Sequence record: MT127620 | DNA length: 64,000 bases | From: Escherichia phage PGN6866 | Direction: 5' to 3' (one strand) | Made by a program: the position numbers and the translations under genes | Notes under the pieces: model-generated | The model's database searches: none | What the model was told of the DNA's origin: nothing | What the model saw: the letters and a program-made list of their open reading frames with translations, nothing else | In this document: positions 41,488 through 43,417 of the stretch, in pieces | Position numbering within the stretch: the first letter of the stretch is position 1 | Layout of the letters: each line of letters starts with the position of its first letter

Positions 41488-42858
41488 TTAGTTATTTGTT
41501 TCCATGTCAAAAGAGATTCCACGACCCGCTTCATCGGCAAACCGAACTGTACGGGTTTGAGGTTCTAATACTTCAGGGTTGTTAGCAATAAAGCGATCAG
41601 CGAGACTGCGGCTGTCAGCCGCAGCGAGTTCCTCATGAGAAGGAGTATCAAGATCGGAGAGACTGCCTACCACATCTTGGGCCACACCTTCATCAGTCCA
41701 CACAGCCCTAACAGGTGCGTTGATATCACCGACAGCAAAACCCTGACCAGAGAACTGACGTGCGCTAACAGTTAAACCATTTGGTCGACCACGAGAGGGT
41801 CTAGCCATCCATCGCTCCATAGAATCACTTGTAATACCGAGAGCTTCTTCAAAAGATGCTCTACGAGTAGGGCTTACTCTTCGTGACTCTTGTGCTCTAC
41901 GCATTGCAGGGGCTACAAACACCCCTTCAATTGCATTATGTCGGTTAGGTTCTTCTTCCCTTCCAAGCAAATCTCCACCCGTGTTGGTTGTTAAGTTTGT
42001 CAACCCTTCAGACCAATATGCATAAATCTGACCAGAGCCATGAACACTTGACATTAACTGAATTTCTTCGTAAGGGATTCCAAAGAATCGACTCATGTCT
42101 CGGTTAACACAATATTGAGCACTTGTTGTATCCTCAACAAGAGCAACCTGACCTCGTTCGTTGACCAGATGATTAATCGGTTGAGGTGTAGGAAGGTATC
42201 GAGTTTGTGCCATATATTGATATGCAACAGATGGAGCGGAGAATCTTAATACCTGTGAATTAGGCCACTTCTTGTGAACATACTTGATTTCACGACTAGA
42301 GACAACCACTGGACAAGGAGAGGTCATAGCCAAATATCCATGGGGGGTCATGAACAGCTTGTCAAGAGTCATCGCACCACGGCACATCATAGGAAAATTA
42401 TCCAATACCTCTTCAATAGAAGTAGGATAATTAAACATGAATTGGATACGAACCCCATTCCACTGAAACTCAATAATATCAGTGAATGTTAATTGAGAAC
42501 CCCCAGCATAGGATTCGTTTGTAGCTTCAGCAAGAAGTGATGAATACTCAATATCTTGCGACTCTAGCCATTCCTTCACATTACTTTCAATCTCTCTTCC
42601 AAGAGCTTGCCAACGGTCAGTTGATGTGAAAGTGTTTCTACCAGCAGGAAGCTGCCCTCTGACAATAAAGATATCAATGTCATGTGGTGCTATATTGTTA
42701 AGAACAGCATCACGAATAGCCCCACCAGTAATGATGGGATAGATACCGTCTGGAATCAAGTTGTTGTTAATCAACTGTTCAATGAAGTGACGACCAACAG
42801 TGATATCAGGTTGTTGAGCAACCTTATCTTCAATTTGGTTAATCGGGATAACAATCAT
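41488..42858 (-). CDS. Pol-beta-superfamily nucleotidyltransferase with CCA-adding-enzyme-like head and unrelated ~250-aa C-terminal region
   Basis: IITGGAIRDAVLNNIAPHDIDIF matches the GGAVRD...D.D motif; no HD motif found. Confidence 0.6.
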   Translation of the reverse strand: MIVIPINQIEDKVAQQPDITVGRHFIEQLINNNLIPDGIYPIITGGAIRDAVLNNIAPHDIDIFIVRGQLPAGRNTFTSTDRWQALGREIESNVKEWLESQDIEYSSLLAEATNESYAGGSQLTFTDIIEFQWNGVRIQFMFNYPTSIEEVLDNFPMMCRGAMTLDKLFMTPHGYLAMTSPCPVVVSSREIKYVHKKWPNSQVLRFSAPSVAYQYMAQTRYLPTPQPINHLVNERGQVALVEDTTSAQYCVNRDMSRFFGIPYEEIQLMSSVHGSGQIYAYWSEGLTNLTTNTGGDLLGREEEPNRHNAIEGVFVAPAMRRAQESRRVSPTRRASFEEALGITSDSMERWMARPSRGRPNGLTVSARQFSGQGFAVGDINAPVRAVWTDEGVAQDVVGSLSDLDTPSHEELAAADSRSLADRFIANNPEVLEPQTRTVRFADEAGRGISFDMETNN

Positions 42859-42859
42859 T

Positions 42860-43417
42860 TTACATTTTCCAATATAATGAAGGTGGGTCGTAAGGGTCAA
42901 ATCCCGTGAGTTCACACAAGAAAAGATAAACCTTAACAGTTAAGTTAACGTCCTGTTCACAATAAGTAAACATATCTTCAGTGAAAGCATCCCATGCTTC
43001 CTCTTGCTCACCATAATCGCCCTTAAGCTCTCCTAAGAACTCACCCCACTGCTTCAAACCATGACCTCTTGGGCCACGTCTAGGGTCGCCTTTCGGATAC
43101 TCAGGACTGTCACCAATACGGTCAGGTTTAAGATATCGACTAAGACATAAAGTGTCAAAGACGTTAAAATGATAGTTGATTAAAGAGGGATACATCTTCT
43201 TCAGAGCAGGTAAGTCGAAGTCAATAATATTATGACCCACTAGTACATCTGCTTCTGTAAGTTTACGAATCCCGTCTTCAATTTGGTGAGGCCGATAGCC
43301 CCACCTTTCACCAGTTTCAACATCAAAGATATAAATACACCATACTTTAGTTATGTCATCGTATAGTGCATTACTCTCGATATCGAATGCAAACACTTTC
43401 TTCTTTTTCTTTACCAC
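42860..43417 (-). CDS. DnaQ-like 3'-5' exonuclease
   Basis: Exo I FAFDIESN, Exo II HNIIDFD, Exo III YCEQD. Confidence 0.8.

Follow-up and report, generated by a model that had tools for sequence, protein, structure and literature searches.

A fast-diverging class II-type nucleotidyltransferase in the replication module of Escherichia phage PGN6866, with a remote tie to Gad2

The 64,000-nucleotide (nt) stretch of Escherichia phage PGN6866 analyzed here (sequence record MT127620; hereafter the window) encodes, within a replication module, a protein with the head motif of the class II nucleotidyltransferases (NTases), the class of the CCA-adding enzymes and poly(A) polymerases. Apart from motif A and the fold of the head domain, the comparisons below give this NTase none of the defining features of a CCA-adding enzyme. 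It appears to be remotely related to Gad2, a phage protein directed against the Gabija defense, and it diverges independently of the genes that surround it. Because of these two observations, the remote homology and the decoupled divergence, a nucleotidyl transfer related to that of Gad2 and directed at the host or its defenses, and not at tRNA repair, is ranked first here, tentatively and at somewhat less than even confidence.

Motif A consists of the sequence GGAIRD at residues 45–50 (42709–42726) and of DID at residues 60–62 (42673–42681), with residue numbers counted from the ATG at 42858. The class II head motif is thus present as originally predicted. Conservation was followed in an alignment of 29 family members, which are 21%–34% identical to the window protein. 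The invariant positions are G45, G46, R49, D50, D60, D62, F64, Y117, I128, Q139, P156, Y193, and K197; all 29 have D or E at position 127, and E130 is variable. Since the residues of motif A are invariant at such low identities and the head has the class II fold, the motif is judged to be far more than a chance resemblance. The strict conservation of the residues expected to contact the nucleoside triphosphate (NTP) and the metal argues for catalysis, or at least for NTP binding.

The family is small. A word-indexed search in 5.8 billion proteins returns only Kuravirus-type proteins (77%–98% identity) and a second group at 31%–33% identity, which matches only the first ∼290 residues of the NTase. 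With the family profile, an exhaustive hidden Markov model (HMM) search against 1.84 billion cluster representatives gives just 32 proteins at E ≤ 0.001, many of them with 274–320 residues and aligned over the first 200–240 residues, a few to ∼290. A second homolog search, seeded with the family alignment, gained only one remote member (P0074; word index). In the collection of cultured phages, matches to the core are confined to Gordonclarkvirinae and fall into three allelic types (∼86%–96%, 45%, and 35%–37% identity), with no credible core match outside this subfamily, even at E up to 5.

An AlphaFold model built with close relatives only (26 sequences) is unusable for the core, with a mean predicted local distance difference test score (pLDDT) of 44.8 and all residues after 274 below 50. 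With remote members added, residues 1–300 reach a pLDDT of 86.6 and a predicted template modeling score of 0.83, with low confidence only at 113–120 and 290–300. In this model, the DxD strand is followed by an inserted long helix. The order of the strands would place Q139 where class II enzymes have the third catalytic carboxylate, and D/E127, on the adjacent strand, could be the third metal ligand. On the same strand-order reading, the stretch that bears motif B in class II enzymes, between the hairpin and the S148 helix, seems to be missing. Motifs B and C are taken here with their generally known consensus and places. By eye, S148-IEEVLDNFPMMCRGAM may occupy the place of SLEEDLKRRDFTxNAxA of class II, with an invariant proline where class II has an aspartate, and F155-P156-M-M-C159 could correspond, in degenerate form, to motif C of class II (RRDFTxNA) and to FDFTVCMG in Gad2.

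Residues ∼150–290 have a high-confidence fold in the model with remote members and are part of the conserved core. They contain three motifs found throughout the family: F155-P156-x-x-C159, R189-x3-Y193-x2-K196-K197-x-P199, and W282-S-x-G-L286, the last one being near the C-terminus in the short members. The basic helix R189–P199 possibly binds the triphosphate or the substrate. The C-terminal half had been described as novel, with ∼250 residues lacking an HD motif or any other recognizable motif. A pattern scan confirms that there is no HD motif, and the remainder of the description holds for residues 291–456, a variable and genus-specific tail for which profile, PDB, and HMM searches return no match beyond close relatives; it does not hold for residues ∼150–290, which are folded and form part of a core conserved across a small family with motifs of its own.

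With the class II enzymes (E. coli Cca and PcnB; 1MIV of B. stearothermophilus), the NTase shares motif A and the head-domain fold. Comparison by hhalign of the NTase family with a class II alignment (Cca and PcnB of E. coli MG1655 and eight phage CCA enzymes found by tblastn) gives E 5e-7 and a probability of 92.5% over 69 columns, with reversed and column-shuffled controls at E ≥ 0.19. Past motif A, the extension of this alignment pairs a predicted helix with the class II strand region, and it is not trusted for the third carboxylate. Against PolyA_pol (PF01743), for which the gathering score is 23, the window protein reaches 14.1 bits (E 0.06) and its close relatives 19.1–20.1 bits. Against the PDB, the family profile matches CCA enzymes (6ibp) over only 26 residues of motif A (E 0.004), and a search with the single protein returns only noise (bL28, bromodomain; E > 0.2). 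Family hhalign against the single sequences of PcnB, Cca, or Brevibacillus Gad2 is uninformative, with nothing credible beyond motif A.

There are other differences with class II. Only ∼145–165 residues of the NTase superpose on class II structures, and the neck, body, and tail domains of class II find no match in this superposition. A pattern scan that detects both motifs in E. coli Cca and in poly(A) polymerase I (PAP I) finds motif C (RRDFTxN) in 0 of the 29 members and motif D (EDxxR), by which class II enzymes select the nucleotide, at no conserved position in them (a lone EDVVR occurs at residue 266 of P0052). Unlike class II enzymes, the NTase has neither motif C nor motif D, neither an HD domain nor a match to body or tail; it carries the inserted helix after the DxD strand and an invariant glutamine at the presumed place of the third carboxylate, it is acidic (isoelectric point, pI, 4.9), and it is limited to one phage lineage.

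The original assignment to class II was open to a better match with another NTase subfamily, and no such match is seen in the fold scores. CD-NTases, MenT toxins, and OAS, which have the Pol-β fold, score clearly lower than class II enzymes, and a CD-NTase, MNT, or MenT identity was rejected because of such scores. CD-NTases, MenT toxins, and OAS carry a GS/GG-type helix motif that lacks R-D. PADLOC and NCBIfam scans of the NTase give no hits.

Gad2 is a phage protein of 400 residues, with an NTase domain predicted by AlphaFold, that the Bacillus phage SPbetaL7 needs to overcome Gabija; co-expression of its homolog encoded in a prophage of Brevibacillus laterosporus suffices to inhibit Gabija (bioRxiv 10.1101/2023.05.01.538930). 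Between the NTase family and an alignment of 28 Gad2 homologs, hhalign gives E 2e-4 over 112 columns with a probability of 46.5% (reversed control 0.062, shuffled controls ≥0.33). The alignment is in register at GG, at DxD-h-(Y/F)-F, at Q139 with the invariant Q89 of Gad2, and at FP-MMC with FDFTVC. With permissive settings, R189-x3-Y193-x2-K196 also falls in register with R152-x3-Y156-x2-K159 of Gad2, at low per-column confidence. Both the NTase and Gad2 match phrog_1614 (“nucleotidyltransferase”) at ∼1e-6. By hhalign, Gad2 and class II reach only 5e-3, and the NTase family, which is closer to each of them than they are to one another, is therefore placed between the two. The Pfam family PF26128 (“Gad2”) is precomputed on most Kuravirus homologs and on all 120 listed homologs of the verified Brevibacillus Gad2 (sequence from Supplementary Table 10 of bioRxiv 10.1101/2023.05.01.538930). 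Taken together, these alignments point to a relationship that is real but remote. Among proteins with a tested function, Gad2 is the closest relative of the NTase.

Like Gad2, the NTase is an acidic phage protein of ∼400 residues with an N-terminal NTase domain, and motifs are shared between them. In some podophages, NTases annotated as Gad2 adjoin the primase/helicase, which recalls the placement of the present NTase, whereas the Gad2 of SPbeta phages lies in an anti-defense locus and not in a replication module. Gad2 of SPbetaL7 is toxic when expressed alone (bioRxiv 10.1101/2023.05.01.538930). An NTase of Pseudomonas phage Emajogi, encoded beside a primase/helicase and with homologs annotated as Gad2 family, is also toxic alone. 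Such toxicity fits enzymes that act on a host component.

The NTase also resembles the phage NTases of the phrog_1614/phrog_10174 type (Providencia PS3, Pseudomonas LKD16, Pectobacterium PP2), which are class II-like and consist of the head only (Foldseek against BFVD, E 4e-8 to 1e-4; PHROG matches, E 4.8e-7 and 4.7e-4). Most of those named are short (167–254 residues), lack the 170-residue tail, and are 13%–18% identical to the NTase. The exhaustive HMM search retrieves none of these short phage NTases at E ≤ 0.001, and the phrog_12715 family to which the NTase belongs therefore forms a separate, isolated branch.

The divergence of the NTase is decoupled from that of its neighbors. In EP335 (Nieuwekanaalvirus) and SU7 (Suseptimavirus), the identities to the window are, respectively, 94.6% and 93.3% for the primase-helicase, 85.7% and 80.0% for the exonuclease subunit, 94.4% and 93.2% for the dCTP (deoxycytidine triphosphate) deaminase, and 82.3% and 84.0% for the Dps-like protein, but 35.2% and 32.1% for the NTase, over its first ∼290–340 residues only. 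In metagenomic relatives with 77%–95% identity in the primase, the NTase is at 29%–34%. Since the NTase is low whatever the identity of the primase, its divergence is saturated and independent of the distance between the backbones. With contig L002, in which the flanks are at 83%–87%, DNA similarity runs through the exonuclease gene into motif A, is then lost, and resumes exactly at the NTase stop codon. The picture that these comparisons suggest is one of a few ancient, deeply diverged NTase alleles exchanged among otherwise similar genomes. Such a pattern is typical of host-facing genes (receptor-binding, exclusion, anti-defense) and atypical of a core replication enzyme.

A second gene of the module, ThyX, likewise seems to have been exchanged for a distantly related allele: ThyX of contig L005 (16040–16684) is 25% identical to that of the window (37723–38379), with the primase-helicase, exonuclease, dCTP deaminase, and gamma-glutamyl cyclotransferase (GGACT) of L005 at 58%–77%.

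The order primase-helicase, exonuclease, NTase, dCTP deaminase is found in three metagenomic contigs and in the cultured EP335 and SU7 (gene order was judged where the contig is long enough to show the flanks; all are phiEco32-like genomes). The exonuclease subunit belongs to a split family-A DNA polymerase. Its adjacency to the NTase is also seen in L002–L005, L007, L025, and L026, and the dCTP deaminase directly follows the NTase in L002, L005, L006, L007, L015, L025, and L026; L003 and L004 keep the upstream order and end in an unclassified downstream ORF (open reading frame). One nt separates the exonuclease stop codon from the NTase start, and, in relatives, the start lies between a 4-nt overlap with that stop and 4 nt downstream. 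The primase-helicase is upstream, and a Dps/ferritin-like protein, thioredoxin, ThyX, and a polymerase subunit are encoded further downstream.

PGN6866 is a Kuravirus (phiEco32/SU10-like; phiEco32, SU10, NJ01, and others) of the subfamily Gordonclarkvirinae, and the DNA of its NTase region shares 88%–95% identity with that of 69 Kuravirus phages of Escherichia and Shigella. The longest ORF, at 41488..42915 on the minus strand (475 residues), starts with GTG 56 nt inside the upstream exonuclease gene, and its first 19 codons overlap that gene. The TAA of the exonuclease gene is at 42860–42862 and is followed by A-ATG. Phrog_12715 (Gordonclarkvirinae nucleotidyltransferase) is matched over profile positions 1–457 of 457 (E 1e-260), beginning at residue 20 of the long ORF. 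All homologs start with MI(V/K)IP, and gp74 of SU10 is annotated in RefSeq with the equivalent start. On these grounds, the start is assigned to the ATG at 42858 and not to the GTG at 42915, and the coding sequence to 41488–42858 (minus strand, 456 residues). The ORF first reported at 41488–42915 is real, and its coordinates need this trimming.

Public records already name the gene “nucleotidyltransferase, class II CCA-adding-enzyme domain” (phrog_12715; SU10 gp74), and the matching gene in Kuravirus records is a “hypothetical protein” or a “nucleotidyltransferase.” Kuravirus proteins that carry the latter name are 78%–95% identical to the NTase. In SU10 preparations, gp74 (50.9 kDa) was seen by mass spectrometry (PMC4281155). 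Neither the gene nor its CCA-like head is new as annotation, both being present in public records and papers. As far as the searched literature shows, the remote tie to Gad2 and the exceptional divergence within a conserved replication module are unreported; the NTase gene goes unmentioned in papers on Kuravirus taxonomy and on transcription in phiEco32 and 7-11.

The tail (residues 291–456) has a pLDDT of 22–36 in the full-length model, with several indels even among Kuravirus proteins, and is missing from the relatives of 274–320 residues. It contains 57% disorder-promoting residues and is only borderline on the charge-hydropathy plot; tandem repeats were sought in it and none was found. It is probably a disordered, genus-specific extension. 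Among seven Kuravirus genes, the ratio of nonsynonymous to synonymous divergence (dN/dS) is 0.08–0.18 for the core and 0.12–0.51 for the tail, and the tail is therefore translated and selected, under a looser constraint than the core.

Between Kuravirus genomes, synonymous divergence (dS) in the tail-coding part (41491–41988) is often about half of that in the core-coding part (41989–42858), with 0.17 versus 0.45 between the window and phiEco32. This suggests different recombination histories of the two halves or an extra DNA or RNA constraint in the tail-coding part. In vB-EcoP-XT32 (P0043), the annotation breaks the NTase gene into two ORFs and, in pEC-N1203-2Af.1 (P0022), an unrelated sequence stands in place of the final ∼30 residues. 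Unless these cases are due to sequencing errors, the end of the tail (possibly the whole gene) is dispensable in culture. Several of the short members end in an aromatic residue after polar or charged ones (EVW, WQW, WTF, WDW, FNF, YDF, and SEW among P0056, P0059, P0060, P0063, P0065, P0066, and P0055), and Kuravirus proteins end in SFDMETNN. Such aromatic C-termini recall the C-terminal docking tails of SSB and of T7 gp2.5/gp4.

Table 1. The NTase gene, its parts, and the two adjoining genes in the window
Feature	Position	Strand	Basis or remark
NTase coding sequence	41488..42858	-	456 residues + stop; ORF list, phrog_12715, homologs, SU10 gp74 annotation
Folded family core, residues 1–290	41989..42858	-	N-terminal helices, class II-type NTase head, reduced non-canonical neck
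Motif A: G45-G46-A-I-R49-D50 ... D60-I-D62	42673..42726	-	NTP and metal binding, predicted; invariant in 29 members
Beta-hairpin, residues 125–146, with D127 and Q139	42421..42486	-	Model secondary structure and family alignment
Helix S148-IEEVL, then F155-P156-M-M-C159	42382..42417	-	P156 invariant; hhalign to Gad2 FDFTVC
Basic helix R189-E-I-K-Y193-V-H-K196-K197-W-P199	42262..42294	-	Y193 and K197 invariant
W282-S-E-G-L286, aromatic-S/T-x-G	42001..42015	-	Closes the conserved core; in most members
Genus-specific acidic tail, residues 291–456	41491..41988	-	Probably disordered; low pLDDT, indels, absent in short relatives
DNA polymerase A 3′–5′ exonuclease subunit, directly upstream	42860..43417	-	Pfam DNA_pol_A_exo1, E 6e-9
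dCTP deaminase, directly downstream	40945..41478	-	Pfam DCD, E 3.6e-34

From these comparisons we infer catalytic activity, the nature of the target, and a counter-defense role. In the host- or defense-directed reading, the NTase would have kept the class II catalytic head (the GG-x-x-R-D helix and the DxD ligands) and lost the nucleotide-templating motifs. The head would bind the NTP, and the nucleotide would be transferred to a hydroxyl on a host or defense-related target, possibly the 3′ end of a nucleic acid, a protein, or a nucleotide. Selection of the target or partner would fall to the neck and tail, which diverge fast, and phage replication would be protected from a host system. A putative Gad2-like counter-defense role is the best lead. 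That nucleotides might be added to another substrate had been proposed beside tRNA repair, and it is the more likely of the two.

Several observations weigh against this host- or defense-directed reading. On Kuravirus proteins, PF26128 is flagged “faint,” with no single match at E ≤ 0.001, whereas true Gad2 homologs carry it without that flag. The hhalign probability is only ∼46% and concerns the N-terminal ∼115–150 residues of Gad2; beyond ∼residue 130 (to 394), Gad2 finds no confident counterpart in the NTase by hhalign. In motif A, the NTase has GGxxRD as in class II, whereas Gad2 has GGTITS, without R-D. A review of February 2026 still lists the mechanism of Gad2 as unknown (PMC12904381), so that “works like Gad2” specifies no chemistry. 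The NTase is fixed and apparently universal in the replication module of its lineage (also PMC11990801), unlike many accessory anti-defense genes. Selection on the core within Kuravirus is of the ordinary purifying kind, and no ongoing positive selection is seen.

A narrower form, which we consider doubtful, makes the NTase a Gad2-type counter-defense enzyme built into the core replication module of the whole subfamily, with alleles matched to defense variants. At least three allelic types (Kuravirus, Nieuwekanaalvirus, Suseptimavirus, metagenomic) would be swapped between near-identical genomes, each allele suiting its own variant of a nuclease-helicase defense of the host, such as Gabija.

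The neighbors of the NTase raise another reading, which ranks next and is on balance unlikely: a role in replication or in the nucleotide pool, in concert with the exonuclease subunit, the primase-helicase, and the dCTP deaminase, perhaps by addition to DNA 3′ ends or by covalent modification of DNA or deoxynucleoside triphosphates against restriction. The place between the exonuclease subunit and the dCTP deaminase is invariant in every relative found. Moreover, Gordonclarkvirinae have an unusual resistance to restriction-modification with no known modification pathway, and the authors of the BASEL study point to the pair of dCTP deaminase and NTase for that resistance (PMC11990801). However, the whole operon is tightly packed, and adjacency alone is for that reason weak evidence. 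A partner of proteins conserved at 80%–95% would be expected to be similarly conserved, and the NTase is at 32%–35%. The phage encodes ThyX, which argues against a genome containing deoxyuridine and makes a role of the NTase in such a genome unlikely. A pI of 4.9 is unusual for a DNA-end enzyme, and Pfam and NCBIfam scans detect no DNA-binding domain.

The tRNA repair put forward in the original prediction, in which tRNAs with 3′ ends damaged by host nucleases would be mended by a minimal enzyme adding CCA or A, is improbable. It has in its favor the class II tRNA nucleotidyltransferase features of the head (fold and motif A), the tRNA gene of the phage, and the fact that phages do encode CCA-adding enzymes. 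The at least one tRNA announced earlier is tRNA-Arg(UCU) at 60001–60076 (minus strand), the single tRNA of the phage; the additional tRNA-like element is not recovered by ARAGORN or Rfam at gathering thresholds, and Rfam finds nothing in the window apart from the tRNA. This tRNA encodes its own 3′ CCA (…GGGCGCACCA). CCA enzymes are found in 416 phage records, chiefly from large-genome phages of Vibrio, Escherichia, Erwinia, Klebsiella, and Aeromonas; in their first 200 residues, most are less than 60% identical to E. coli Cca. These enzymes are canonical, and the similarity of the NTase to them is not detectable beyond motif A. The rationale for repair is weakened by these two facts. The absence of motifs C and D from any conserved position, the superposition limited to the head, the PolyA_pol scores of 14–20 bits (under 23), the invariant glutamine at the place assigned to the third carboxylate, and the acidic pI do not support it either, and fast divergence is unexpected for an enzyme that recognizes the universal shape of tRNA.

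Little weight is given to RNA tailing, the poly(A)-polymerase-like tagging of host or phage RNAs for decay or stabilization while the phage takes over the cell. PAP I has a long unstructured C-terminal extension, which the tail of the NTase resembles; but PAP I is strongly basic (pI 9.7), the NTase with its tail is acidic, and it has no counterpart of the RNA-holding neck and body of PAP I and no motifs C and D. The chance is equally slim that the NTase is a pseudo-enzyme, a catalytically dead fold that would act as scaffold, sponge, or decoy, for example by binding a host protein or a nucleotide signal: the glutamine in place of the carboxylate with a variable E130, the acidic character with a variable tail as in many phage inhibitor proteins, and the very fast divergence outside a few motifs would suit it, but the invariance of GG, R49, D50, and DxD is hard to explain without catalysis or metal-NTP binding, D/E127 could serve as third ligand, and Gad2, which shares the glutamine, is described as a predicted enzyme.

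Around the module, other features were seen. A conserved cluster lies upstream of the replication genes (45668–51445, minus strand, continuing to ∼56 kb) and contains an amidoligase (50342–51445), a glutamine amidotransferase (48231–49922), a GGACT (45668–46087), and an ORF of 397 residues without Pfam hit (46594–47787), the SU10 equivalent of which is annotated as RimK-like “S6 glutaminyl transferase.” Contigs L005 and L007 likewise have an amidoligase, glutamine amidotransferase, and GGACT cluster upstream of their replication genes, and the cluster looks like a peptide-ligation or modification system. The Dps/ferritin-like protein (39365–39976, minus strand), called “DNA binding protein” in relatives and 82%–84% identical across three genera, is an unusual component of a phage replication module. 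Homing endonucleases of the HNH/NUMOD4 type occur in relatives (L002 at 174–716, 6349–6843, and 8119–8610; L007 at 1275–1706 and 13181–13660) and are absent from most of the corresponding places in the window, where the ORF at 38372–38851, by ThyX, may be one. Insertions of homing endonucleases are also noted in the BASEL paper (PMC11990801).

As annotated, the gene is an ordinary “nucleotidyltransferase” already present in ∼100 phage records. The CCA label is misleading, and functional inferences drawn from it should be dropped. The NTase is by far the fastest-diverging gene in a module otherwise conserved at 80%–95%, as expected at the phage–host interface. Its family links Gad2 to class II through an intermediate found in genetically tractable E. 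coli phages (Bas86–Bas94 of the BASEL collection), and the chemistry of the NTase in such a phage could reveal the mechanism of Gad2. If the role in replication or modification were true, the NTase would be a new accessory activity of a replisome with a split family-A DNA polymerase. If the counter-defense role is true, it would help to explain why Gordonclarkvirinae are broadly resistant to DNA-targeting defenses of the host, which matters for the choice of therapeutic phages.

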